A DNA stretch of 64,000 nt from Escherichia phage vB_EcoM_EC001 (MN445185.1), one strand, 5' to 3'. Positions 261 to 63,285 are shown, counted from the stretch's first letter. Numbers and translations: made by a program. Notes: generated from the letters alone by a model not told the origin.

Positions 261-280
261 TGCGATAAAAAATAAAAGCC

Positions 281-318
281 TACCTACTCCCTTGGGAGTA
301 GGTAGTTCTTTTTTTCTT
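281..318. terminator. bidirectional rho-independent terminator
   Basis: Perfect 12-bp stem CTACCTACTCCC/GGGAGTAGGTAG, TT loop, T-tract downstream and A-tract upstream; between convergent genes. Confidence 0.8.
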
Positions 319-941
319 TAATTTGTTAACCCGTTATCTTTCAGGATTTTCAACATCGCATCATTCAACGCCTGCAGTTCTTGATTCTGCTTAGTGAGTG
401 TTGCAACTTGTTCTGTCAGAGGAACCTGCTCACGGATTTTGGCTTTACGCACCGCTTCCATTTGCAAGTGTTCTTCTTCCGTCACCGTCCCTTCGTAATC
501 CATCGATGTGATGTCCACACGTGCATCGATTCCTAAACCGCGTTCTAAGATGCTTTTCAGGTCGTTCGTTAGCAGTGTGACATCGACGTATTCGGGTATT
601 AATGCCAGGTCAATAACCACCACATTGCGTCTATAATTTAACCCGTTCAGTCCAGGATACGTCTCAATGTACGTATCAGGCAACTCGTAGACTTGACCGT
701 CCCTCGACTTTAATGTTACAATCGAGGCTTCGACATTAGCGTCGCTGATATAGTCGTCACGAGTTAGGCCGACAGGTTTATAATACTTGTTATAAACGTC
801 AATATTATTACGTTGGAGTTTCGGAAAGTTCTGTACCGCGTCAACACGGTAAATCACTTTATCTGGCAACGTATAAGGTGCCTTAACCTTGAACAACCCC
901 TCAAGGTTAACCTGAGGCGTGTTAGGCAACAGTTGTGCCAT
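318..941 (-). CDS. hypothetical protein (207 aa)
   Basis: Long ORF co-oriented and adjacent to 952..2331; no recognisable motif. Confidence 0.6.
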   Translation of the reverse strand: MAQLLPNTPQVNLEGLFKVKAPYTLPDKVIYRVDAVQNFPKLQRNNIDVYNKYYKPVGLTRDDYISDANVEASIVTLKSRDGQVYELPDTYIETYPGLNGLNYRRNVVVIDLALIPEYVDVTLLTNDLKSILERGLGIDARVDITSMDYEGTVTEEEHLQMEAVRKAKIREQVPLTEQVATLTKQNQELQALNDAMLKILKDNGLTN

Positions 942-951
942 TTAACCCTCC

Positions 952-2331
952 TTAGGCTTTTGGCTCTGCCGCAGGAACATCCCAAATGGCCTTACGGGCC
1001 AAGACACGATATTCCACGTTATCGAATTCGAAGACGTAGAAGTAAACGTTAGGATCAACGTCGTCTACGAGCTTCACGATATCCAACGGGGTGGAGTGCG
1101 GATGGTACTCTTCGGCTGCAATTAACGCCTGGAAGAACAGATCCAACCACTCGGTGGTTTTCTTCGACATTCTCGCAATATCCGCATTATTAGTGCCGAT
1201 TAATGCGTAGTCAGGAATTGTGTCATGCAGGGTCGTTTTGCGTGAATCGTTTTCAGGGCCAGCGATAACCACGGCGTTCAACGATTTATAGATGGACGGT
1301 AAATCCGTTACATCGGTAGTTGGAATCGAGATCGCTCCACTATTTTTTTCCGTAATGGTTTGAACAGTCCACTCCCCAAATCGGGAGATTGCTTTGACCC
1401 AGAAATCATATGGGAGAATCGGCGAGTATAATGCCGCAACATCTTCCTCATTTGGAATCCCACGAATTGACCAACCGGGAACAATTGTGAACTTGGTGGT
1501 CGTAAAGATTTCTGGGAACACTTTGACACCCAACGCCACAGTAAAACTGGAGTTTGCCAAAATGTAATCACGTAACGCTTGTTTAATCCTGCTCGGGTTA
1601 CGACCCGCGCGTCCGTAGATGATAGCCGACATCGGTATCGGTAAGGTGGAGTCAAAGTCTTCCTGGTCGTGCCAAGTATAGATGTTAGTAATCAGGCTAG
1701 TGTACGGATAACCGTCAGCTAATTCGTTAATCTTATTATGGTGATCCGGAAGGTTGAACCCTTCCATTGCCTTTTCGACTACAGATTTCACAGCCAAGAA
1801 AGTATCAACCGGTAATATCGGCATTTGGACTTCAATTTCAAATCCAGTATAGTCCTGATTGAAATCTTCATCAGCAAACCAGAGAATAATCTGGTTATTT
1901 ACATCAGACGGGTCTTCGACTTTATCTGCTGTGGTTTCAAGTTTCCAACTGACCCAACGTGGGAACCAGTTACTGTTAGTCTGAATCATCGCGCCAGACT
2001 GAACACCGCTGATGACACTATTAAATTGCCCCAACAGCAAACGCTGGAATTCAACTTCGTCGTTTCTTAAGTTGCCCAGGATAGACTGTTGGTAGATCCA
2101 TTGGGAAACAGTAAGAACGTGGTCGCTAAAGACGGCCGGGGTCTTAATAGGCAACTCGTCACGTTTAGAAGTAAAAGCAACCAGTTCCACCTGCAGATTT
2201 TCTTTAGTAAAATACTGCTTGCTTTTAGCGAACGAATATGACAGCTCAGACAACTCACCTACCGGAGCGGTGTTGCCAGGGCCATTATCAATCAGAGCCG
2301 CTATTTGAATAAAGCCTTGTAAATCATACAT
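952..2331 (-). CDS. hypothetical protein (459 aa)
   Basis: Long ORF, ATG start; no recognisable catalytic motif. Confidence 0.65.
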   Translation of the reverse strand: MYDLQGFIQIAALIDNGPGNTAPVGELSELSYSFAKSKQYFTKENLQVELVAFTSKRDELPIKTPAVFSDHVLTVSQWIYQQSILGNLRNDEVEFQRLLLGQFNSVISGVQSGAMIQTNSNWFPRWVSWKLETTADKVEDPSDVNNQIILWFADEDFNQDYTGFEIEVQMPILPVDTFLAVKSVVEKAMEGFNLPDHHNKINELADGYPYTSLITNIYTWHDQEDFDSTLPIPMSAIIYGRAGRNPSRIKQALRDYILANSSFTVALGVKVFPEIFTTTKFTIVPGWSIRGIPNEEDVAALYSPILPYDFWVKAISRFGEWTVQTITEKNSGAISIPTTDVTDLPSIYKSLNAVVIAGPENDSRKTTLHDTIPDYALIGTNNADIARMSKKTTEWLDLFFQALIAAEEYHPHSTPLDIVKLVDDVDPNVYFYVFEFDNVEYRVLARKAIWDVPAAEPKA

Positions 2332-2349
2332 AATTAAAAACTCTCCGAG

Positions 2350-2865
2350 GTGAGCATGATAGCATCAGTTTTCAAACTGCTTCCATTCTTACAGATGCTG
2401 TGGGAAGCATTTAAACCGGGCGAGGGGGAGAAAGTAACACGAGCCGGGAAGATAGTGACACTAGTGATAGTGGCACTGGTCGCGTTCTCTGCATTTGTCT
2501 CATATGCCTATATTGTTCAATACCACACACTGGTTAGCGTCCAATCGCGTACTCAGTATCTGGAGATATCCTATAAGGAGCTAAAAGAGAAGTCCGATCA
2601 TGGCGAAGTGGAGAACAATAAGCTGTACGATCGTCTCTTCACATGCCTGGGTTCTCGATCGCCATATGATGGTACCAAATCTCCAACAGGGACAGGCACT
2701 GGGGCCGCGGTTCCGCCTGAAGAACTCAAGCCGGTAACACCACAGGCACCGTTAAATCCGTCTAGCCCGCCTGCCAAGAAACACCAGGCGGCTTCTCGCC
2801 CAGTGGGGTCGCAGGCGGCAAACGATTTCCGACAGGAGATTATCAAGACGCTTAATAATCCATGA
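2350..2865 (+). CDS. membrane-anchored protein (one TM helix, coiled-coil-like segment, Pro-rich C-terminus); possible i-spanin
   Basis: Hydrophobic segment KIVTLVIVALVAFSAFVSYAYIV; GTG at 2350 or ATG at 2356; SD-like site upstream; function is inference. Confidence 0.5.
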   Translation: MSMIASVFKLLPFLQMLWEAFKPGEGEKVTRAGKIVTLVIVALVAFSAFVSYAYIVQYHTLVSVQSRTQYLEISYKELKEKSDHGEVENNKLYDRLFTCLGSRSPYDGTKSPTGTGTGAAVPPEELKPVTPQAPLNPSSPPAKKHQAASRPVGSQAANDFRQEIIKTLNNP

Positions 2866-2874
2866 GGAGCATAC

Positions 2875-3354
2875 ATGAAGTTATTTTTGGTGGCGATACT
2901 GGTGCTATTGTTGACAGGATGCCCTGGGGTCATCCGTCACGTAGACCCAGATTACTCCTCAACCGGAGATTGGCCTTTTCGTCCTTTAGAACACCCACCA
3001 GTATATAACGGTGGGAACAGTCCTGAGGCGAAAAAGCTGGCAGGGAAAATGTTTGTTGCGGATGTGAACGCTTATGCTTATTACGTTTATCTGTACGCTA
3101 AGTCAGTAAACAACTATGCAGAAGCTAAAGGGTGGCACACCCCGATGACCGCACCGCTTTGTGAAGAGTTTATTCGCCCCACTCTTCATGGTATACCCTC
3201 CGGGATATATCTCGACCCTGGTTCTCGTAGCCCTCAAGACATTAGTCGTGATTTGTCACGACAGATTAAGTCTCTCATTCGCAGCTATCGCGAAGACAGA
3301 GAGTCTTTTAATCGTGCCTACGAACGGCACAAAAGTAGTTGCCTTGTGCAATGA
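2875..3354 (+). CDS. lipoprotein (159 aa); possible o-spanin or superinfection-exclusion lipoprotein
   Basis: N-terminus MKLFLVAILVLLLTGC is a signal peptide with lipobox L-T-G-C; GAGGAG SD 8 nt upstream. Confidence 0.6.
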   Translation: MKLFLVAILVLLLTGCPGVIRHVDPDYSSTGDWPFRPLEHPPVYNGGNSPEAKKLAGKMFVADVNAYAYYVYLYAKSVNNYAEAKGWHTPMTAPLCEEFIRPTLHGIPSGIYLDPGSRSPQDISRDLSRQIKSLIRSYREDRESFNRAYERHKSSCLVQ

Positions 3355-3358
3355 AAAC

Positions 3359-3397
3359 TCCCTCTTACCTTCGGGTAAGAGGGGATTTCCTTTTTTA
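3359..3397 (+). terminator. rho-independent terminator
   Basis: Stem TCCCTCTTACC/GGTAAGAGGGGA with TTCG loop followed by T-tract. Confidence 0.75.
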
Positions 3398-3442
3398 CGT
3401 TAATAGTCAATAGTGTGATATATAATCTCGTGGAGAGTTGAA

Positions 3443-4162
3443 ATGACCTATCCTAAAATTCTGCCTGTTTTAACGCCCACCGTTGTTGTTGGGACGGACT
3501 TAGAGACCCTGGCTTTACGTCCAGATGCCTACATCTTAACGTTGGCAAACGTGGCATTCGATGTTCCGACAATGAAAATGATCGGTTCATGTTACCACAA
3601 AATCGACCCCAATGATGCAAAAGCAAAAGAAATCTTCTACATCGATCCACAAACGGTCGGTTATTGGGAAGGTAAAGGCGACCCCGAATACGCACCGAGC
3701 GAGAAAGCACGTATTGAAGCGTTTTCTGGGACCACACCACTGCCAGAAGCACTGTGGGCGGCCAAAAAATGGTTGGATGATCTGGGCAACGTGAAAATGG
3801 TTATCACCATGCGCGGTCCCGATTTCGATGCTCCAATTCTGATGAACGCATTTGCACAGTGCGATATCCCGCCGGGCAAGTACCGCAAGTTTTCTATTTT
3901 GGACTCTGACCGGACTGCAGAACGTATTGCATATGCGTTTGGCTTGGAACCTAACTGGCACGCAGAAGCCCACCACTGGACCCGTGGCAAAGAAGCGTAC
4001 GAGCATAACGCTAACTTTGATGCTGCGAAGGAAGCGTATTCTACGGCACGCATCTATCATTTGGCCCTGGTCGCGCGTACGTACGGCTTCGAACGCATGT
4101 TAGAAGCCCACCGCGAAATGTGCACAGGTGAATACATTCCACCGCAGTTGCGAGGAGAATAA
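3443..4162 (+). CDS. DEDDh-family 3'-5' exonuclease (DnaQ-like), putative
   Basis: Exo I-like VVVGTDLETLAL, Exo II-like GPDFDAPIL, Exo III-like HNANFDAAKEAY; motif-level only. Confidence 0.5.
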   Translation: MTYPKILPVLTPTVVVGTDLETLALRPDAYILTLANVAFDVPTMKMIGSCYHKIDPNDAKAKEIFYIDPQTVGYWEGKGDPEYAPSEKARIEAFSGTTPLPEALWAAKKWLDDLGNVKMVITMRGPDFDAPILMNAFAQCDIPPGKYRKFSILDSDRTAERIAYAFGLEPNWHAEAHHWTRGKEAYEHNANFDAAKEAYSTARIYHLALVARTYGFERMLEAHREMCTGEYIPPQLRGE

Positions 4163-5676
4163 TGAAAGACGTCGACGTAGCGGTTATTTATACCGATGGT
4201 AGTCATACTGAGTCCCCGAAAGGTTCGGGGGCTGGTATTCATGGTTATTTATTCAACAACGGAGATTTGGAAGACAGTCAGGCTTATAGCCATCCGGGTG
4301 TTTCAGAACGGATTACCACTGTTGGATACAAAAAAGTGCCGCAGGATGTGAAGTGTCCGGAGTTGCCGGACACCGTTCAATTTGTCGACGCCGTTATTCC
4401 CGTTCCGAAAGAGTTCTACTCAGATGTGGGCGAGTTAATCGCCTTCATCACGTTGTTTGAGAACGCACCCTTCCGCGCGAAGAACTATATTATCTACGTG
4501 GATGCCAGTTATGTTGTAAACACTTTTAACGAGTGGATAGACGGCTGGCATAAACGTGGTTGGGTTCGTGCTGACGGTACTCCGCTGGCGAACAAAGAAC
4601 TTATTGTTCGTATCTGGGAAATCAAACAGCAGATGAAAAAAGAAGGACGGGGTGTTAAGGTTATCAAAATCAAAGGACACTCCGGCCACTACGGTAACGA
4701 CCGGGCGGACGAATTGGCTAGAAAAGGTTCAGCTATCACAGCGACCAACGACGGCGTTCCATATCAGCCGTACTGGTCGAAGGATGAGTTGCCTGCATCC
4801 GCGGAACCCGAGCCCATCGCCGCTGGGATGAACCTTGCGGCATATCCGCCGATTTGTACGGTTAAATATTGCTATCCGTTGGTGAACGAGGACCATCCTA
4901 CTGTAAAAGTGAAAGATGAAACTTTCTATTACATGTTTGGTGGCAACCATGCAAAGAACAAGGACGACTTGGTGTTTATTGGGAAAATGATTCCTGATGC
5001 ACACTTTTCCGTAATGTTCACTAAACAACCGTGGGATAACATCTACACGATTGTAAACAACCACGCCGCCCTGGCATGGAAAGATACACCGAAGATGCGG
5101 CAGTATGATCCAATCGGCGTTGTTAACAATGAGTTCGTTAAACGTAAGAAGTTCGTTGACGTGGCAGGTGATGGATTACCAGCAGACAAGATGCATTTCA
5201 GTGGAGAAGATTCCAACGTCTGGTTCTTTGAAGACCTGGCCATCTCCAGAATGCTTCGCCCACCCTTATTGTCGTACCGTGCGCTGGATATTCGTGACGA
5301 ACTCGCTACAACGTTGCGTGATGTTCTGCATCAGGAAAAGGGTTATGTCTTAAACGATATTACCGACTTGCTATTCGACGACAAAGGTAAACCTGTCAAG
5401 GAATACTACCGCAGCGTCGATAAGTCAATAACGTTAAAGATTGACTTTCCGATGGGTAAACGACCTGTCTCGGTTATTTTGACGCGTGGTATCGATATTC
5501 CATCGCGTACGGAAATCAACCGTATTAAAGAACCGGAAGGCCGTTATTACATCGCGGTGTGTCGTCCTGAAAAATACTACATCCGTTACTTCTTAATCTA
5601 TATCGGTAAAGAGTATCATGGGTTGTGGTGTGCGTATTACGCAAACCGTCGCATACTGCGAGAAGAAGAGGTGTAA
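4162..5676 (+). CDS. RNase HI-like domain fused to ~280-aa C-terminal domain of unknown function
   Basis: TDGS, GELIAFI, DASYVV, WIDGWHKRGW and KGHSGHYGNDRADELARKG match the E. coli RNase HI catalytic motifs (from memory); start overlaps upstream stop (TAATG). Confidence 0.7.
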   Translation: MKDVDVAVIYTDGSHTESPKGSGAGIHGYLFNNGDLEDSQAYSHPGVSERITTVGYKKVPQDVKCPELPDTVQFVDAVIPVPKEFYSDVGELIAFITLFENAPFRAKNYIIYVDASYVVNTFNEWIDGWHKRGWVRADGTPLANKELIVRIWEIKQQMKKEGRGVKVIKIKGHSGHYGNDRADELARKGSAITATNDGVPYQPYWSKDELPASAEPEPIAAGMNLAAYPPICTVKYCYPLVNEDHPTVKVKDETFYYMFGGNHAKNKDDLVFIGKMIPDAHFSVMFTKQPWDNIYTIVNNHAALAWKDTPKMRQYDPIGVVNNEFVKRKKFVDVAGDGLPADKMHFSGEDSNVWFFEDLAISRMLRPPLLSYRALDIRDELATTLRDVLHQEKGYVLNDITDLLFDDKGKPVKEYYRSVDKSITLKIDFPMGKRPVSVILTRGIDIPSRTEINRIKEPEGRYYIAVCRPEKYYIRYFLIYIGKEYHGLWCAYYANRRILREEEV

Positions 5677-5677
5677 C

Positions 5678-6418
5678 ATGTTGCGAGTCGTGAGTGAATC
5701 GCTCACGCTCCACACACAAAGTCTGATTAACTGTGTGGAGCAATACGGATGGATGTCATGGATGGCAACGAACCGTGAGTTCGGTGCTGCGCCCATGGAA
5801 GATTACGACGTGTTGTACAAGTGGGGATTTGAAGCGGCTTGTGATGTTGTGGCAGAGCTGGTTACTGAAACAATTGCGCGTTACAATGCAAGATGTGATG
5901 AACCGATGCCTAAACAAGTCCCGCCGCAAATACCTCCGCTACCGACAATCGATCGTGAGCAGTGTCGAATCTGGACAATGGAAGAGTTGTACGACGAACA
6001 CGTTAGAATGCTGAAACCGAACGAGCTAATAACCGGTGCGTTGAACTGGTTCTTACATCGTTTCTGGACAGAGTTGGTCGATGTGGCGGGTGACGAAGAT
6101 AATTGTTCTCAGGTTATTTGGTACGATCGAGCGATGTTTCATCGCAGTCTTAAAGATCGCAGTCTCTGCAACCTGTATATTGTTGACCCGTGTGAAGACA
6201 TTGTAAGGGTGGCAGAAGGTAACTCTTATTCGGACTTGGTGATGCCTGTGGTAGAAAAACCGATGGGTATTTTCCTGCAGGGAGACGCTTGGGTTTTAAC
6301 GGATGATATCTCGGGCTACCTGCTGGACCCGGATGACATTCACTCGGACGAACCTGACACCATCGAGTATTTTCACTTTACAGAACAGGCAGCACGCTTC
6401 TTGCATCTCTTAAAGTAA
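5678..6418 (+). CDS. hypothetical protein (246 aa)
   Basis: ATG at 5678 with SD GAAGAGG, 1 nt after upstream stop; track ORF from 5618 overlaps the preceding gene. Confidence 0.6.
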   Translation: MLRVVSESLTLHTQSLINCVEQYGWMSWMATNREFGAAPMEDYDVLYKWGFEAACDVVAELVTETIARYNARCDEPMPKQVPPQIPPLPTIDREQCRIWTMEELYDEHVRMLKPNELITGALNWFLHRFWTELVDVAGDEDNCSQVIWYDRAMFHRSLKDRSLCNLYIVDPCEDIVRVAEGNSYSDLVMPVVEKPMGIFLQGDAWVLTDDISGYLLDPDDIHSDEPDTIEYFHFTEQAARFLHLLK

Positions 6419-6420
6419 TC

Positions 6421-6442
6421 TGAGATAGATATTATCTACAGG
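6421..6442 (+). promoter_or_regulatory. candidate phage promoter, AT-rich motif family A (TGAGATAGATATTATCTACAGG)
   Basis: Intergenic, ~30 nt upstream of the 6472 start; shares CTSAGAYAKATATTAYCT core with sites at 14950 and 46607. Confidence 0.4.
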
Positions 6443-6471
6443 GACGTAACCTTAAGGAGAATTTATTCACG

Positions 6472-7206
6472 ATGCTTAAAGTCGAAGTGCCAGTGCTTTT
6501 AAACCTCACGCCCCAGTTCTTTGAAGCGTTGTTCGAAAAGCATTGGCCCGCGTTCGCGAAGAACGAACTAAAGGATAACCCACAGTGGTATCCTCTGCGC
6601 GATGAATTCAAGTATACAGCCATCAACGTCTGTATAGAAGTCTTCACTGCGTGGTTACAAGAGATGTACGACTGCATCAACACCGAACGGCTGTTCACGC
6701 TAGAACATGTAGAGATTAATGTTGTTGACGTCTACGAAGGTTACTCCTACGAAGAAGGCATTACTGCCACGGGGTTAAGCCAGCAAGACGTTGAAGAACA
6801 AATCTTTGCGTGGATCGAGTGGTTCACGGAAAAGTTGATGCTGGCTGATTTTGTCACGCAGGTGGAAGATGTATTCATCCCAATGTACGAGCGGTTAGCT
6901 GAGATACGTCGTAACCATCGACTGCTCGGTTACTGGTATGACACTTATACCACCTCCTCAACACTGTGGTCTTCCGCTACTGCCGCTTTTGGCATAACTG
7001 AAGGCGATTACGATGTCGTTCATTCTGGCCCTTGGCAGTACGGTTTCGGCACACTGTGGCACGAACTGACCGATGTCATGTGTCTGGACTTTTATCTCTG
7101 TGAAGGTAAGTTTTACACGGATAACTGCGTGAGCCAAATTCCGAATGGTGCGACGGTGGTGATGTGTCGCATCCGTAAAGAAGTCTCTAAGAAACTAAAC
7201 TACTGA
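6472..7206 (+). CDS. hypothetical acidic protein (244 aa)
   Basis: Long ORF with SD AAGGAGA upstream. Confidence 0.6.
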   Translation: MLKVEVPVLLNLTPQFFEALFEKHWPAFAKNELKDNPQWYPLRDEFKYTAINVCIEVFTAWLQEMYDCINTERLFTLEHVEINVVDVYEGYSYEEGITATGLSQQDVEEQIFAWIEWFTEKLMLADFVTQVEDVFIPMYERLAEIRRNHRLLGYWYDTYTTSSTLWSSATAAFGITEGDYDVVHSGPWQYGFGTLWHELTDVMCLDFYLCEGKFYTDNCVSQIPNGATVVMCRIRKEVSKKLNY

Positions 7207-7219
7207 AGGAGTATTTAAC

Positions 7220-7591
7220 ATGACGCAAGACGAATTTGAAACACTGGTTAAACAATACTTTAAAGAAGGGACTATTCTGTACATAGTCGCACCCGAGAGC
7301 GAAAACTGGTTGACGTTATCGTCGCGGGTAACCACCCTACGCGGCCCAGTTTCTCAAGAAATAAGACAGATGGCTCGTATAGTTCGAGATACCGCCATCC
7401 AGGGCGGTAAAGTCGTCAGCTTCTCCCACCTCTCTCCGATCGGCCACTCTAACTTAGAAACCGAAGTTGATGTGGTTGCAACCGTCGGTTTCGATTTAGA
7501 CGGCTCCCCAGGCACTAGCCTTGTTGCCATTAAGAAATGGCGTGGATACGATGCGATTCCATCGCCGGGGGTTTGGCCAGCTACCAGCTAA
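7220..7591 (+). CDS. hypothetical protein (123 aa)
   Basis: ORF with SD AAGGAG and TATTTAAC spacer before ATG. Confidence 0.55.
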   Translation: MTQDEFETLVKQYFKEGTILYIVAPESENWLTLSSRVTTLRGPVSQEIRQMARIVRDTAIQGGKVVSFSHLSPIGHSNLETEVDVVATVGFDLDGSPGTSLVAIKKWRGYDAIPSPGVWPATS

Positions 7592-7601
7592 TGGGGGCGG
7601 T

Positions 7602-8009
7602 ATGTTAAAGGTGTATAGCGAGTCATTGATGGACTTGCAAGAGTATCTAAAGCATGTGGAAATTAACGGCAACCGAGGAATGATATACTCCATGGTTGTC
7701 GAGATTTTAATTAAAATCGTGCTTGTTTCATTCCACGTGGCAGAAAATGGCACTGCTGTACCAGGCGATGTTTATAAAGGTGTTATTAAACATCTTAGCG
7801 ACCGCTACAGTTGTTTACGTGAACCGGATATCTTTAATGAGGTGCAACGTGTTGTGTTGCTTATCCTCGACAACCGTGGAGACTTGGCGTTCAAGCTTGC
7901 GCGTGAATTGGCAGACACGTCACAGCACGGTGGACAACTGAAATATAACGTTGTGGATCTCGTAGCGTGCAGATACTGGTATACGCAGCCCGAGTTAAGT
8001 AACTTTTAA
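7602..8009 (+). CDS. hypothetical protein (136 aa)
   Basis: ATG at 7602 just after upstream stop; track ORF from 7521 overlaps the preceding gene. Confidence 0.5.
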   Translation: MLKVYSESLMDLQEYLKHVEINGNRGMIYSMVVEILIKIVLVSFHVAENGTAVPGDVYKGVIKHLSDRYSCLREPDIFNEVQRVVLLILDNRGDLAFKLARELADTSQHGGQLKYNVVDLVACRYWYTQPELSNF

Positions 8010-8019
8010 GGAGCATTAG

Positions 8020-8559
8020 ATGCAAATCGTAATTGACTTCGCTCTGTCGGAGTCGAGACGTCAGCTAGATGAAATTCTGTTAGGATTAAAACGTGACGTG
8101 GAATTTGAACTTCACGATGCGTTGGCCGTCCACGAAAATCGTTTGTCTGACGAAATAGGTTCGGGTGTAGATGTGACTATCTGTGACACTGGGGATATGG
8201 TAAATCAGCTTATTGAACGTATGTTCACGCGGCTGCGTAACATTCTGAACTATCCCCATCGTTTTGAACTGGTAGAAGGGACGGACCAAATCACCGACTT
8301 ATTGAGTGAAGCCTTTGATAAGGTCGGTGAGTCTCTGGCGGGGTTACATCAAGAGAACCTGGGCGAGACATACGTTGCTGTGGTCATTAACGGGCAATCA
8401 TCGAACGTCACGGACACGGTAACATGGTCTGATATCGTTGACCAGCCAATCATTGACAAAATCACCAAGTTGTATCGTGATGCGGAAATGAAGGTGCTGG
8501 CTATCTGTCGTCGTGAACTACTGTATCTCGGCGAGAAATATGGGAAACCTGCTGAATGA
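8020..8559 (+). CDS. hypothetical protein (179 aa)
   Basis: ORF with SD AAGGAG upstream. Confidence 0.6.
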   Translation: MQIVIDFALSESRRQLDEILLGLKRDVEFELHDALAVHENRLSDEIGSGVDVTICDTGDMVNQLIERMFTRLRNILNYPHRFELVEGTDQITDLLSEAFDKVGESLAGLHQENLGETYVAVVINGQSSNVTDTVTWSDIVDQPIIDKITKLYRDAEMKVLAICRRELLYLGEKYGKPAE

Positions 8560-9098
8560 AAATATTCATTGATTTACTCGATGACGAATTTCGCGAAATA
8601 TTTCCAGCGGCGTTGTTCGAGTTTAAACGCAAGTGTGAAGACTATCTAATACCGAAGAATATCGATCGTCAGCACCTCGCCGGGCTTATCTCTGCGGCGT
8701 ACGTCAACATCGCGGTAAATGAAGTTCATCAACTCGCCCAGCGTATTGCGTGTTTCGAATACAACGACGAAGACATTGAAGACGGCTTCCTGCAGTCTAA
8801 GATGGGTCGCTTCTCACTCGAACTCAAGACCGATGAAGTTATTGATAAGGTCGGTAAAGCGTTTGATGAAATGAAAGACATCGAAATGATGATTAAAATG
8901 TCTGGACCGGAAGCTGGGCCGTTGAAAGAAGCGTGGGAAAATCTCAACCGCGAAGGGTATAAAAAGATGTATATGGAGGAGTTCACCACTATGCTACGTC
9001 ATCTCGAAGCGCAGATCTGGGAGCATATCGTTTCACGTCTGAAAGAAATACTGATTGTGGTCGAACCAATGCAGCCCATCACTATTGGCAATTTCTAG
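8556..9098 (+). CDS. hypothetical protein (180 aa)
   Basis: ATGA start/stop overlap with upstream gene (translational coupling). Confidence 0.6.
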   Translation: MKIFIDLLDDEFREIFPAALFEFKRKCEDYLIPKNIDRQHLAGLISAAYVNIAVNEVHQLAQRIACFEYNDEDIEDGFLQSKMGRFSLELKTDEVIDKVGKAFDEMKDIEMMIKMSGPEAGPLKEAWENLNREGYKKMYMEEFTTMLRHLEAQIWEHIVSRLKEILIVVEPMQPITIGNF

Positions 9099-9102
9099 TT
9101 AA

Positions 9103-9135
9103 ACGGACACTCTTCGGGGTGTCCGTAGTTTTATT
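9103..9135 (+). terminator. rho-independent terminator
   Basis: Hairpin ACGGACAC..GTGTCCGT followed by T-rich tract. Confidence 0.65.
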
Positions 9136-9149
9136 TTAATCGACCATTA
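9136..9149 (+). promoter_or_regulatory. conserved 14-mer TTAATCGACCATTA (motif family B), candidate phage promoter or 5' leader element
   Basis: Exact 14-mer 17 nt upstream of ATG 9167; identical copies at 46667 and 47536, each 17-19 nt before a start codon. Confidence 0.45.
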
Positions 9150-9166
9150 ATCTAAAGGAGTATTAA

Positions 9167-10090
9167 ATGGACAGCTTTCTTTTTGATTTGGCAGAATCGG
9201 TAAATGTAGATGTAATCGGTATGCGCGAATCCCCGAGTAATTTCTTAAACGGTCTTACTAAAATCGACGAACGTGTGAAATCCAGAAGTGGAGATCCCGC
9301 CATCATCGAGCAATACGCAATAGCCCATTGTGGCGAGATAGGCCAGCACTTTATACCGATTGAGGCGTTCCTAAAGAACTGCTTCGCCGAAGAATGCACC
9401 GCAGACTTCCTGTCTCTTGCCTACGGCTGGCGATACGGGGGTATCCAAATGGAATTTGATCTTAATATTTTTGAACAAGTTCTACTTGGCGACGTTCTCA
9501 CTGAGATACCACGCAGCTGGATAGACAAGATTCCCGGTTGGGCCGTCTCCTTTTCAGTGTGCTATCGCGCTAAAGATATCGGTATCCAAGAAAAGACTTA
9601 CGTTTTCGGTCGGCGAATGTTTAAAGGGAAAGATTGTTTAACAATGATGATTTTTGGAAAACGTATCGAGGGGGAAACCTTTGAAATCGTGGACGTGGGT
9701 GACGGCTTTGTATCCTTGCGTGTGGCGGAAACTGGTACGCCGGCCAATGAGAAAACGTTACGCATTGTCGGCGCTACCATGTTTACATTCTCACTGATCC
9801 CGCACAACCCTACACCCGTCAAACTGAGACAATTAACTGGAAAGAAACGTATCGCCAATTACCACATTGAACCAAAATCTAAACCGACTGTCCTCTCCAC
9901 CGTAAAAGCACAAAGCGAGTATCTTGAAGAATTTGATACTGATACGGAGAAAAGAACACAAGGTAGCAGATGTGCGCATATGCGTCGTGCACACTGGTGT
10001 ACTTACTGGCTCGGTCCACGTGACGGGAATCGGACAAAGATTTTGAAATGGATACCGCCGACATTTGTCAACGGTTCTAAATGCAAATAA
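9167..10090 (+). CDS. hypothetical protein (307 aa)
   Basis: Long ORF with SD AAAGGAG upstream. Confidence 0.65.
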   Translation: MDSFLFDLAESVNVDVIGMRESPSNFLNGLTKIDERVKSRSGDPAIIEQYAIAHCGEIGQHFIPIEAFLKNCFAEECTADFLSLAYGWRYGGIQMEFDLNIFEQVLLGDVLTEIPRSWIDKIPGWAVSFSVCYRAKDIGIQEKTYVFGRRMFKGKDCLTMMIFGKRIEGETFEIVDVGDGFVSLRVAETGTPANEKTLRIVGATMFTFSLIPHNPTPVKLRQLTGKKRIANYHIEPKSKPTVLSTVKAQSEYLEEFDTDTEKRTQGSRCAHMRRAHWCTYWLGPRDGNRTKILKWIPPTFVNGSKCK

Positions 10091-10099
10091 AATAAAGCC

Positions 10100-10150
10100 T
10101 ACCCACTCCCCTTATGGGAGTGGGTAATGCTTATTTTTTTTTTATTTTTT
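10100..10150. terminator. bidirectional rho-independent terminator
   Basis: Stem TACCCACTCCC/GGGAGTGGGTA with long T-tract and upstream A-tract; stem nearly identical to the terminator at 281-318. Confidence 0.8.
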
Positions 10151-12804: not shown

Positions 12805-12807
12805 GCA

Positions 12808-12834
12808 TGGGCGGGGCAACCCGCCTGTTTTTTC
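12808..12834 (+). terminator. rho-independent terminator
   Basis: GGCGGGG-CAA-CCCGCC hairpin followed by TGTTTTTT. Confidence 0.7.
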
Positions 12835-13790: not shown

Positions 13791-14515
13791 GATTAGGACG
13801 CCGTTTCTTAGTCGATATCGACACAATCTTCGATACACGAATTGGTTGGGCGAAAGTGTTGCAGCCTGATGTATTAGAGAAGCTTGATTTAGAAGTGTAT
13901 CGGATGCGGTTCACAGATGCGTGGGCCGAAGTGGTAGGAATTCAGGACTGGAATAAAAAGTTCGCGGAGCGTGATAAACGCGCGTTGCAGAACGCGCAGC
14001 CAACAGAAATGTTGCTTACGCTAAAGAACGAAGTACAGGCAATGTTAATGACGATACAGATGCACGCTCCTATCGAGCGACCTGTCTTAACGTTTAACCT
14101 GTGGCCATACGCTGATCTCGATGATGAAGAACGTCATGCGTTTTTGGAAGAACTGCGTTACTACTATAACGAAGTGCAAGTAGACGTCGTTGTTATTCCT
14201 CACAGCGATCTTACACCAGGGCGACTTGCTTCGGCGTGGGACGGTTGGATAATGTACGATTGGTATCCGTGGATAGAACAACACGCGAACCATTTCCAGA
14301 AACCGATTCCGGATTTTACGATTACCCGACCGAGTATGCTGACCAGCGAATTAACGGAAGAAGCAATCGCGCAAATAAAAAGAGATAAGGTGAACCCCTT
14401 TAAGGAGTCCACCCGTTTTCTTGCTCAATACGTCGGTACTGACGTAAAGGACACTGCGCTGTTTAGTCTTCGTCGTCATCAGCAGGACGACGACTCGCAA
14501 ACGCAGACGCCATGA
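13787..14515 (+). CDS. hypothetical protein (242 aa)
   Basis: ATGA overlap with upstream stop; 3' end overlaps the convergent ORF 14463..14933. Confidence 0.55.
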   Translation: MRLGRRFLVDIDTIFDTRIGWAKVLQPDVLEKLDLEVYRMRFTDAWAEVVGIQDWNKKFAERDKRALQNAQPTEMLLTLKNEVQAMLMTIQMHAPIERPVLTFNLWPYADLDDEERHAFLEELRYYYNEVQVDVVVIPHSDLTPGRLASAWDGWIMYDWYPWIEQHANHFQKPIPDFTITRPSMLTSELTEEAIAQIKRDKVNPFKESTRFLAQYVGTDVKDTALFSLRRHQQDDDSQTQTP

Positions 14516-19214: not shown

Positions 19215-19218
19215 GTCG

Positions 19219-19255
19219 TGCCCTCTCCTTCGGGAGAGGGTATCTTTATTTTTTA
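19219..19255 (+). terminator. rho-independent terminator
   Basis: CCCTCTCC-TTCG-GGAGAGGG hairpin plus T-tract. Confidence 0.8.
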
Positions 19256-19272
19256 TCTTAAGGAGTATGTAA

Positions 19273-20103: not shown

Positions 20104-20956
20104 TATTATTCAGCAGACTCAGGCGGTTGATGATTGGTACCGGCAAGCGAAGATTTACCAATACGGGACACGCGAGCAGCAGCTAGCCAAGTTCTATCGC
20201 ACATTAGGCGACGTCGCTGAAGGTGTGCAGAAGATGGACAACTTGAAAGTGGCGGCGGCCATGGGTCGCTCTCTTTGGGCGTTCGTTGGTCTGTTGCACT
20301 TCGGCAAGCACACGAACGTGGGAGATTTCGTTATTCCACTGGATGCAGCTATAAAAGACCGCACCACGGGAAACACCAAAGAGTTCCGTCTTCATAACCT
20401 TTTTGTTGTTGCCACCGAAGTGGTTGGACTCATATTGCAAGATGAGCACGAGCCCCACAGCTACGTTACCGAGCTGCATAGTTTGGCGCGACAATACCGA
20501 ATGTTGGCGCGTATCTGCGGCCTGGAATTCGGCCGTGTAATATACAACGGACATCGTGTGCTAATCAACACGAAAGGTGAAATGAACGGCATCGGGTTGT
20601 TTGTTCCCGCGTCTGATGATTTTACTGGCGATAAATTGCCTGGTTCTAGACAGATGTCTGGGCCAGCCATCTGTCTGATGTTCCAGACTGTCCTGGACAG
20701 TTGTGTCGCTACGCACCTTGCGCCCTATTGCCACCGGCCGTTTAAACGCGACGAGTTGCCGACAATCAATGCTGCACTCGCAACTACGTTAAACGAACTG
20801 CTGGACAAATATGTTCGTGACTCAGTGCGCTGGAATCGTATCCTGTTCGAACGTGTACCTGAAATAACCGCAGCCTACACAGATGGCGGTGTGAATGTGG
20901 TGATGAATGATGATCTACTTTACTTATTTGAAAGCTTAAAGAGGGATAGTATCTAA
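20096..20956 (+). CDS. hypothetical protein (286 aa), coupled to thymidylate synthase
   Basis: ATG at 20096 with SD AGGAGGA; stop overlaps the thymidylate synthase start (TAATG); MazG-like pyrophosphatase considered but motif match is weak. Confidence 0.5.
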
Positions 20957-21987
20957 TGAAGCAATACCTTGAAACGATGCAGAATATTCTGGATGAAGGG
21001 CATGTTAAAGGCGACCGTACTGGAACAGGGACGCTCTCCGTCTTTGGTCGCCAAATGCGTTTTGATTTGCGCAAAGGTTTCCCGCTAGTCACGACTAAAA
21101 AACTCCACCTGCGTTCTATTATTCACGAACTGCTGTGGTTCCTTAGTGGCGATACCAACACCAAATATCTGGAAGATAACGGCGTTACCATTTGGCGGGA
21201 GTGGCAAGATGAAAATGGGAACCTTGGCCCCCTGTATGGGGAACAGTGGAGACGTTGGAAAGATGTGAAACTGGTGCCTAAGAAAAATGCAGCTTTACTC
21301 GAGAAACTGCAAGATGCAGGATACGTGGATTATGGCGACGCGGACGACGGTTCACAAATGTTCGATGCGCGTGTACTTCTGAAAGAGCACGACCAAATCT
21401 CTAAGGTGATTGACCAACTGCGTAACGATCCTGACAGTCGCCGTATTATTGTCAGCGCATGGAATGTGGGTGAGTTGGATCAAATGGCGTTAGCTCCGTG
21501 TCATGCGTTCTTTCAGTTCTACACTCGTGAGCTGTCTATCGACGAGCGGGTGAATTGGGCAGAAGATAACGATAACGAACTCTGGTCTGATTATGTCCAC
21601 AGCACGTACGTACCCGCACCTAAGCGATTAGAGTGGTTGGATAAAGCCAACGTGCCAACCCGTATGTTGTCTTGTCAGCTGTATGCACGTTCCCAAGACT
21701 TCTTCCTGGGAACACCGTTCAACATCGCGTCTTACGCATTACTCGTGCACATGGTAGCTCAACAAGTTAACATGGTGCCAGGCGATTTCGTTTGGAGCGG
21801 CGGTGACGTGCATCTGTACTCCAACCATCTGGAGCAGGCCAAGCTGCAGCTGACGCGTGAACCTTTACCTTTGCCGAAACTGGTCATCAAACGTAAACCG
21901 GAATCTATCTTCGGTTATAAGTTCGATGATTTTGAGATCCAGGATTACGTATCACACGACCCAATTAAAGCGCCTGTCGCTATCTAA
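20956..21987 (+). CDS. thyA: thymidylate synthase (ThyA family) with two insertions relative to E. coli ThyA
   Basis: N-terminus [31 protein letters not shown], active-site [12 protein letters not shown]-terminus [25 protein letters not shown] all near-identical to E. coli ThyA (from memory). Confidence 0.92.
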
Positions 21988-24253: not shown

Positions 24254-24290
24254 TTAGGGTGTCCATATGGACACCCTACTTATTTTTTTG
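24254..24290 (+). terminator. rho-independent terminator
   Basis: AGGGTGTCC-ATAT-GGACACCCT hairpin plus T-tract. Confidence 0.8.
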
Positions 24291-25646: not shown

Positions 25647-25702
25647 AAAATAAAAGCAAACGAGTACCCCGTTAGGGGTACTCGCATTACTTATTTTTTT
25701 TG
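25645..25702. terminator. bidirectional rho-independent terminator
   Basis: GAGTACCCC-GTTA-GGGGTACTC hairpin flanked by A-tract and T-tract, between convergent operons. Confidence 0.8.
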
Positions 25703-46606: not shown

Positions 46607-46635
46607 AAAAAGAACTGAGATATATATTACTTAGG
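46607..46635 (+). promoter_or_regulatory. candidate phage promoter, AT-rich motif family A (AAAAAGAACTGAGATATATATTACTTAGG)
   Basis: Intergenic; contains TATATTAC; same architecture as the 14950 site. Confidence 0.45.
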
Positions 46636-46666
46636 TGAGCGTTACACGTTAACGCTTTAATCGACC

Positions 46667-49012: not shown

Positions 49013-49555
49013 ATGAAGCAACTTAATACTCTCGGTCAGGACGATATCAAACCGATTCCATCTGATATGAAACGTGAAGACATTATCCGCCACATCAATC
49101 AGATCGGCGACGTGTTTACGTTGTCCATGAAAGCTATACTGGAAGATGCTTTCGAAACCATTGCCGAATATCCGGTTGAGATTATTCCGCACACCATCAA
49201 CGGCTACCAGCGTTTTCTCGACACGATCACCAAAGGTAGTAGCGGTCGTATTATCGCAGGTTTTATCATCCGCTTTAAGTGCCTGTTGCAAGTAGAGCTG
49301 GGCGACGATGTACTCCGTCGGCTGGAACACGAACTCATTAGCATGTCCGCCAACGACATTCTCGCGGCAGAATCAGGGCAAGGTTATAAAGACGGGATGT
49401 CTCTCTGGAAGATTGCCCACCCTGACTTGGGCGATGTTCAACCACCGTCTGAATTCGATGTGCTCGTAACCTATCTGTTATTGCTGCAAATCAAGAACTT
49501 GCTGATTCGTGCCAATGCGCAGCGTGAAATCGATGCTGGCCAACCGAAAAAATAA
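49013..49555 (+). CDS. hypothetical protein (180 aa)
   Basis: ORF with SD GGAGC upstream. Confidence 0.55.
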   Translation: MKQLNTLGQDDIKPIPSDMKREDIIRHINQIGDVFTLSMKAILEDAFETIAEYPVEIIPHTINGYQRFLDTITKGSSGRIIAGFIIRFKCLLQVELGDDVLRRLEHELISMSANDILAAESGQGYKDGMSLWKIAHPDLGDVQPPSEFDVLVTYLLLLQIKNLLIRANAQREIDAGQPKK

Positions 49556-49604
49556 AACGTACCTCTCTCCAAATGGAGAGAGGTAACGCTTGTTTTTTTT
49601 TTGT
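49546..49604. terminator. bidirectional rho-independent terminator
   Basis: CCTCTCTCC-AAAT-GGAGAGAGG hairpin with long T-tract and upstream A-tract, between convergent genes. Confidence 0.8.
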
Positions 49605-57671: not shown

Positions 57672-57695
57672 CCTCCACCCCTTCGGGGGTGGAGG
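57672..57695 (+). terminator. stable GC hairpin without U-tract (attenuator or processing/stability element)
   Basis: CCTCCACCCC-TTCG-GGGGTGGAGG perfect 10-bp stem; right arm overlaps the terminase SD region. Confidence 0.4.
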
Positions 57696-60073: not shown

Positions 60074-60131
60074 AAAAAATACGACGTTGCCACCTCTCCG
60101 AAACTGGAGAGGTGGCACTTTATTTTATTTC
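60074..60131. terminator. bidirectional rho-independent terminator
   Basis: GCCACCTCTCC-GAAACT-GGAGAGGTGGC hairpin with A-tract upstream and T-tract downstream. Confidence 0.8.
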
Positions 60132-63233: not shown

Positions 63234-63285
63234 AGGCGTACTCTCTTCGGGGAGTACGCCAATCTTATTTTTTTTGTTTTTTTAA
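63234..63285 (+). terminator. rho-independent terminator
   Basis: GGCGTACTC-TCTTCGG-GGAGTACGCC hairpin followed by long T-tract. Confidence 0.8.

Follow-up and report, generated by a model that had tools for sequence, protein, structure and literature searches.

The window analysed here, a 64,000-nucleotide stretch of Escherichia phage vB_EcoM_EC001 (MN445185.1), contains four hairpins, named 280, 10100, 19221 and 49560 after the first nucleotide of the stem, which a sequence-only reading had described as terminator hairpins that reuse near-identical stems at distant sites. Across the initial 12 kb, identity is 98.6% to Salmonella phage JN03, 97.5% to SPN3US and 60-80% to the Erwinia jumbo phages; position 1 of the window corresponds to approximately 177029 in JN03, and the window therefore represents the last ~64 kb of the genome of an SPN3US-like (Seoulvirus) jumbo phage. 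Phages of the phiKZ type carry out transcription with multisubunit RNA polymerases of their own, and several genes for RNA polymerase beta/beta' subunits are annotated in JN03, SPN3US and Erwinia phage Asesino; a UvsX-like recombinase is also annotated in relatives. Orthologs of the terminators were mapped in JN03, Lh1B, SPN3US, SPLA1a, SPAsTU and Asesino, making seven genomes with the present phage. A search of the whole window against Rfam at gathering thresholds returned no family matches.

All four hairpins were found in the places claimed for them (Table 1), and each is intergenic, at a distance of 5-21 nt from a stop codon. Hairpin 280 lies between the end of a plus-strand coding sequence at 260 and that of a minus-strand coding sequence at 319 (as taken from the JN03 coding sequences), and hairpin 10100 between open reading frames (ORFs) ending at 10090 on the plus strand and 10142 on the minus strand. 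The stems are perfect, with 8-11 bp that include 5-7 G-C pairs, and all four are followed, 0-3 nt from the stem, by a T-run with at least five T in 8 nt; at 280, 10100 and 49560 an A-run upstream accompanies the T-run downstream. Folding energies ranged from -20 to -28 kcal/mol, with z values of -4.3 to -8.7, and for three of the hairpins folding was strong on both strands: 280 (-20.2 and -24.6 kcal/mol, z -4.3 and -5.9), 10100 (-25.3 and -28.3 kcal/mol) and 49560 (-23.8 and -24.9 kcal/mol), with -20.2 kcal/mol (z -5.0) for 19221. The GC-rich stem followed by a T-run, the position just past a stop codon in a gap and the strong folding bear out the description as terminator hairpins and, together with the conservation described below, lead us to infer that the four are intrinsic transcription terminators. 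The GC-rich hairpin in the nascent RNA, followed by the U-run, would release the transcript and, between the convergent genes at 280, 10100 and 49560, one palindrome with A-run and T-run sides would stop transcription in both directions. Bacteria, too, have bidirectional intrinsic terminators that are single GC-rich palindromes between convergent genes, each preceded by an A-run and followed by a T-run; the focal convergent-gene hairpins resemble them in palindrome, tracts and folding on both strands, with no difference in mechanism. They differ in their stereotyped arm composition and in the high density of such elements in this phage group, approximately one terminator-like hairpin per 4.8 kb compared with one per 13.6 kb found by the same detector in 150 kb of Escherichia coli K-12.

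The arms of hairpins 280 and 10100 do differ, as claimed, at a single aligned position, T versus C, with a compensating A versus G in the other arm. The hexamer AAAGCC stands directly upstream of both stems, GCCTACCYACTCCC is exact at both sites (three matches with up to two mismatches, against 0.32 expected), and the 10-nt flanks on each side agree at 15 of 20 positions, compared with 11.6 ± 1.8 for other bidirectional pairs. Local alignments that looked for long-range flank homology around similar stems scored on common downstream promoter-like boxes and T-runs, and gave no extended homology for 280/10100. For the second pair, the claim that 19221 and 49562 share CCTCTCC/GGAGAGG was imprecise: the heptamer is present in the arm of 19221, as it is in that of 60088, but the 49560 arm does not contain it exactly, and 19221 and 49560 have no word longer than 6 nt in common. 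The likeness within both pairs is largely what a shared terminator style predicts.

The relatives show how old these stems are. That of 280 is unchanged in all seven genomes, including Asesino; that of 10100 is unchanged in six, including SPN3US, Lh1B, SPLA1a and Asesino, is conserved in phiEaH2 as well, and is replaced by TGCCTACCCC in SPAsTU. Both stems keep their primary sequence, with no compensated changes and with flanks approximately 70% identical. Since CTACCTACTCC and TACCCACTCC are unchanged at the orthologous sites of Asesino, and the T/C difference is thus kept in both Seoulvirus and Erskinevirus, the pair is ancient, with no homogenisation in progress; on this evidence 280 and 10100 appear to be two old, separately maintained terminators, neither recent duplicates nor recombination partners. 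The core stem and TTCG loop of 19221 recur unaltered in five of the six relatives, Asesino among them; in the SPN3US ortholog the 3' arm carries a single substitution (GGGGAGGG for GGAGAGGG). Compensated pair changes are found in the Asesino orthologs of 49560 (CCTCACTCC/CGTAAA), 24255 (TGGTGTGTCC/ATAT, two compensated pairs), 25661 and 60088, the arms staying G-poor throughout, and these changes confirm that pairing is under selection.

The loops behave differently in three cases. The 280 loop (292-295) reads CTTG in the window, JN03 and SPLA1a and CAAG in Lh1B and SPN3US; the 10100 loop (10111-10115) reads CTTAT or GTAAG, an inversion plus one substitution; and the 25661 loop (25671-25674) reads GTTA in the window, SPN3US and SPLA1a and TAAC in JN03. 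These inversions separate genomes that are more than 96% identical, leave the stems untouched and show no correlation with the presence of the accessory ORF described below. A scan of IMG/VR for loop variants of hairpin 280 returned SPN3US itself only. The pattern resembles the minute inversions known from hairpins in non-coding plastid DNA, a phenomenon cited in, for example, PMC9653739 and PMC6005162: a loop of 4-5 nt between perfect inverted arms turns up as its exact reverse complement in very close relatives. Those are organelle genomes, whereas the phage case concerns terminators in seven genomes only.

An all-versus-all comparison of predicted terminators, which the sequence-only reading had proposed, was run on JN03, using 50 perfect hairpins of at least 8 bp with a T- or A-run and three nulls of 500 replicates each (arm shuffle, first-order Markov and column permutation). 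Stem reuse proved to be far above all three. There were 19, 10, 5 and 1 arm pairs with at least 8, 9, 10 and 11 matches, respectively, against 3.7, 1.0, 0.12 and 0 for the arm shuffle, 4.4, 1.0, 0.09 and 0.002 for the Markov null, and 1.0, 0.2, 0.006 and 0 for the column permutation. No replicate of any null reached the observed counts at the first three thresholds, and the single pair at 11 or more was reached by 1 of 500 Markov replicates. The best cases lie outside the 280/10100 pair. They are a triple of identical 24-nt CCCTCTTACC-TTCG units, at window 3360, JN03 69671 and JN03 96747, and the stem at JN03 136976 (CTTACCCACTCCC/CTTAC), which has its stem, a near-identical loop and the upstream AAATAAAGCC in common with window 10100. 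The core ACCCACTC occurs in seven Asesino terminators and three JN03 terminators.

Two other JN03 terminators, at 116840 and 159411, both of the form ACCCTACTCC(C), are alike past the T-run as well (TTTTTTTGCCT..CCGATTAC), which suggests that the duplicated unit extended beyond the hairpin itself.

Similar stems also go with similar surroundings. The 10-nt flanks of bidirectional pairs with similar stems agree at 15.0 of 20 positions in JN03, against 11.6 (P = 0.0004), and at 14.9 of 20 in Asesino, against 11.3 (P < 1e-4). In three cases a within-genome identity stands where the ortholog differs. Asesino 47555 equals Asesino 179909 in the stem and in 19 of 20 flank positions, and the JN03 ortholog is CTACCCTCTCC; Asesino 42137 equals Asesino 137918 in a TACCCACTCC stem with an unusual TTTGCG loop, and the JN03 ortholog is CCTCTCTACC/CTAG; and window 3360 (JN03 180390) equals JN03 96747 in the CCCTCTTACC stem and TTCG loop, where SPAsTU and Asesino each have another stem. 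Asesino 96754 retains the stem of the 96747 type. Single copying events are a more economical account than six coordinated substitutions, and the evidence, which is of moderate strength, suggests that a minority of terminators was copied from a non-orthologous site in the same genome. The earlier idea that the likeness may reflect a duplication of regulatory cassettes is supported for other terminators of the population, and not for 280/10100 as a recent event, their stems being unchanged in Asesino.

Most terminators of this phage group share what may be called a house style: after an A-run, which is optional, comes a 5' arm 8-13 nt long, rich in C, poor in G and ending in CC; a short loop follows, preferably TTCG, then the complementary arm, which is purine-rich and starts GG(G)AG, and lastly a T-run. 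Arms that are C-rich and G-poor on the 5' side number 29 of 50 in JN03 and 24 of 40 in Asesino, with six of the opposite kind in each (binomial P of 1e-4 and 1e-3, respectively). The loop-closing position is C in 84-93% of arms in these two genomes, TTCG or CGAA loops account for 19 of 50 and 17 of 40, and the raw counts of terminators with TTAT no more than 14 nt from the stem are 21 of 44 and 13 of 36.

A precedent exists in phiKZ, for which ONT-cappable-seq mapped 61 intrinsic terminators with the consensus 5'-BCCYCCCCHWWDGGGRRGGBYTTATKYYGT-3' (PMC10914365), and in 201phi2-1, where the same method found a similar motif (motif A) in 59 terminators (PMC11512511). The present phage resembles both in broad lineage, in having its own RNA polymerases and many terminators per genome, in the C-rich 5' arm, short loop, purine-rich 3' arm and T-rich tail, in which TTAT may be a common element, and in the bidirectional terminators between convergent genes. 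It differs from phiKZ in that its stems are longer, include A and T, fall into several sub-cores and are dominated by TTCG loops, and its terminators are predicted from sequence, whereas those of phiKZ and 201phi2-1 were mapped on transcripts. Membership of the phiKZ consensus at the level of sequence was rejected: the best match in the window, at 10104, agrees at 24 of 30 positions, which is the level of shuffled sequence (one hit against 0-1). The hairpins of the phage look functional and belong to a known kind, the stereotyped intrinsic terminators of phiKZ-like jumbo phages, and in that respect are mostly expected. With them the conserved terminator style, reported so far for phiKZ and 201phi2-1, reaches the SPN3US/Erskinevirus branch of enterobacterial phages, and they provide a simple rule for recognising terminators there (a T-run after a hairpin whose 5' arm is C-rich and G-poor and whose closure is CC-TTCG-GG), of use mainly in annotation and synthetic biology; they also mean that likeness of primary sequence between terminators of these genomes is by itself no evidence of recent duplication.

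The sequence-only reading had further proposed that the repeated stems could mediate intragenomic recombination. All mapped terminators are in collinear positions in JN03 and Asesino, no rearrangement was found that joins the focal hairpins, and over the 64 kb the window and SPN3US show only four structural differences of at least 6 bp. Two of the four are no more than 40 nt away from the centre of a terminator, a zone that makes up 2.2% of the window. One of the differences is a 1-kb cassette, consisting of the 9103 terminator and a 307-aa ORF and ending at the A-run of 10100. The ORF has 44% amino acid identity to Asesino gp235, and the JN03 copy is unannotated; no Pfam match was found, and the match in PHROGs is to a family of unassigned function. 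The window phage, JN03, Lh1B and Asesino carry it, and SPN3US, SPLA1a, SPAsTU and phiEaH2 do not, the 9103 terminator being absent along with it in SPN3US, SPLA1a and SPAsTU, a distribution that points to repeated gain or loss in both genera. In Asesino a TACCCACTCC(C) hairpin stands on each side of the ORF, and one is kept in phiEaH2, which is without the ORF. A crossover inside the hairpin repeats was considered for this indel and is not supported as proposed: in alignments of the junctions the breakpoint falls within the A-tract upstream of the stem. A role of the terminators in recombination is unproven.

One conserved box touches on the same question. A 23-nt sequence, AGATATATATTACYTAGGTGAG, is found once in the window, at 46618-46640 on the plus strand; boxes of this type occur ten times per genome in JN03 (including 4796, 58071, 67740, 74564, 96832, 116902 and 165090) and in Asesino, and not at all in shuffled sequence. 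It is probably an early promoter of the phage. In 6 of 10 cases in JN03 and 5 of 10 in Asesino a terminator stem stands 25-62 nt upstream of it, and the two make up units like the promoter-early stem-loop (PeSL) cassettes of T4-type phages, in which a terminator stem-loop and an early promoter are repeated together (PMC2839356, PMC4122927). These cassettes, whose repeats also hold the endpoints of indels and replacements between close relatives and give mini-circles by recombination, are the closest described system: here too the stem-loops are intergenic and dispersed, and an accessory gene between units is carried by some close relatives and missing from others, as is the ORF at 9167-10090. 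The terminator-promoter composite is present at the six JN03 sites and absent at the focal hairpins, none of the four having a promoter-like box beside it. The present box also differs from PeSL promoters in being phage-specific and not sigma-70-like, the breakpoint maps to the A-tract beside the stem, and genome structure is for the most part collinear, not hyperplastic.

Taking these results together, we consider it likely that the hairpins are factor-independent terminators of an SPN3US-like, phiKZ-related jumbo phage, made in one house style and with a minority copied between sites. What is observed directly is the reuse of stems beyond chance, together with the anatomy, placement, folding and conservation of the hairpins and their compensatory changes; beyond this we infer termination itself, the reason for the style and the mechanism of copying. 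The style would narrow the usable sequence space, and hence similar stems would recur, and some terminators would have been overwritten or seeded from elsewhere in the genome, probably by short-patch recombination for which the A/T-run flanks and the stem could serve as homology. Several points weigh against this account. The pairs in the reuse test are not independent, one triple making up three of the five best, and neither are those of the flank test, in which site 187129 takes part in three of the four JN03 pairs; with units so short, convergence on a few optimal stems is possible; the link to the phiKZ motif appears to be one of style and not of sequence; termination is predicted from anatomy; and the E. 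coli K-12 baseline gave four C-rich-first hairpins and none of the opposite kind among its 11 per 150 kb (Fisher P = 0.32), which is too small a number to show that the asymmetry is specific to the phage. To these belongs the test confined to the window, where each arm of its 12 terminator-like perfect hairpins was shuffled with composition kept: a pair as good as 280/10100 arose in 7% of shuffles, and a 6-nt common word, as in 19221/49560, in 16%. Similarity of the window pairs is thus almost what GC-rich hairpins give by chance, and it is in JN03 genome-wide that it goes beyond this. The view that biased, GC-rich stems of 8-12 bp at unlinked sites simply look alike draws on these window figures and on the roughly one pair with at least nine matches that is expected genome-wide; against it are counts 5- to 50-fold above the three nulls, the greater likeness of the flanks of similar-stem pairs, the three identical 24-nt units, and shared non-canonical loops (CTTAC/CTTAT at JN03 136976/187129, and TTTGCG at Asesino 42137/137918). 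Chance is refuted for the population as a whole, for which we hold it to be highly improbable, and stands only for 19221/49560.

Recognition of a particular sequence, in which a phage protein or an element of the RNA polymerase would bind stem cores (ACYCC ... GGRGT) that selection keeps alike, could account for the conservation of the 280 and 10100 stems in primary sequence and for the recurrence of GG(G)AG at the start of the 3' arm. It is hard to reconcile with the coexistence of unrelated cores (ACCCACTCC, CCTCTCTCC, CCCTCTTACC, GGGTGTCC, GAGTACCCC and GGCGGG), whose common trait is a compositional style, or with other orthologous stems that change freely with compensation or are replaced outright; a lineage preference for ACTCC or TCTCC cores, scored with a loose regular expression, was not significant (Fisher P = 0.22), and the C-G closure of the UUCG loop is explained by thermodynamics. 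We therefore think the shared protein recognition feature of the sequence-only reading most unlikely, and just as improbable the roles that could be proposed for its binder, as a factor in termination, processing, stability or export. A greater claim can be made for dispersed-repeat dynamics as the main driver, by which terminators would spread in the manner of PeSL units, become homogenised and offer crossover points for accessory genes: the lineage-specific identities, the bracketed ORF with one hairpin kept in relatives that are without it, the closeness of two of the SPN3US differences to terminators, the six of ten early-promoter-like boxes in JN03 that follow a terminator, and the UvsX-like recombinase all speak for it. 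Even so, we find it doubtful, because the 280 and 10100 stems have been distinct since before the Seoulvirus/Erskinevirus split, the indel breakpoint falls outside the stem, and the focal hairpins have no promoter box; moreover, the sample is four events in collinear genomes, and surviving indels are intergenic only, which alone would put breakpoints near terminators. A related reading, in which the terminators would be a dispersed repeat family evolving partly in concert, with entire units of stem-loop and tracts now and then pasted over non-orthologous terminators, loops flipped and accessory-gene cassettes bracketed by the same short homologies, seems to us unlikely, and the same applies to the flipping of loops by recombination or template switching between perfect arms that belongs to it. 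If it were true, the terminators would double as a recombination grammar of an otherwise collinear giant genome. If the signals of copying and loop flipping prove true more widely, they would make terminators a workable marker by which to follow short-patch recombination in phages that form a nucleus.

Table 1. Predicted terminators and the accessory ORF of the window (positions from the first nucleotide; stems as 5' arm / loop / 3' arm where given).
Feature	Coordinates	Strand	Stem and loop	Remarks
Bidirectional intrinsic terminator (hairpin 280)	266..318	both	280-305: CTACCTACTCC / CTTG / GGAGTAGGTAG	Between convergent genes; A-tract upstream, T-tract downstream
Terminator	3359..3384	+	CCCTCTTACC / TTCG	One of three identical copies genome-wide
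Terminator	9103..9126	+	ACGGACACTC / TTCG / GGGTGTCCGT	Left edge of accessory-gene cassette
Accessory ORF	9167..10090	+		307 aa, PHROG 6160; between the 9103 and 10100 terminators
Bidirectional intrinsic terminator (hairpin 10100)	10086..10140	both	10100-10126: TACCCACTCCC / CTTAT / GGGAGTGGGTA	Between convergent genes
Terminator	12807..12828	+	GGCGGG / GCAA / CCCGCC	After UvsX-like gene; not C-rich-first; conserved to Asesino
Unidirectional intrinsic terminator (hairpin 19221)	19218..19256	+	Core 19221-19240: CCCTCTCC / TTCG / GGAGAGGG	Between two plus-strand genes
Terminator	24255..24278	not specified	TAGGGTGTCC / ATAT	
Bidirectional terminator	25661..25684	both	CGAGTACCCC / GTTA	Asesino ortholog with one compensated pair
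Bidirectional intrinsic terminator (hairpin 49560)	49548..49604	both	49560-49585: TACCTCTCTCC / AAAT / GGAGAGAGGTA	Between convergent genes
Terminator	57672..57695	-	CCTCCACCCC / CGAA (TTCG) / GGGGTGGAGG	
Terminator	60088..60117	+	TGCCACCTCTCC / GAAACT	Heptamer CCTCTCC in arm
Terminator	63235..63260	+	GGCGTACTC(TC) / TTCG	

Three further observations concern other parts of the window. Just past the 63235 terminator, at 63276, a T-run differs in length by 10 bp from that of SPN3US; homopolymer tracts beside terminators therefore vary in length. An imperfect, terminator-like hairpin at 14388-14414 (AGGTGAACCCC TTTAA GGAGTCCACCC) lies at the overlap of two convergent coding sequences. Its core GAACCCCTTTAAGGAG is conserved in relatives out to Asesino, and the element may be under coding constraint rather than be a terminator. 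Finally, the segments at 20161-20957 and 21548-21715 have no megablast similarity to their SPN3US counterparts (795 versus 807 bp and 166 versus 172 bp, respectively) in surroundings that are 97-98% identical, and look like allelic replacements of part of a gene.

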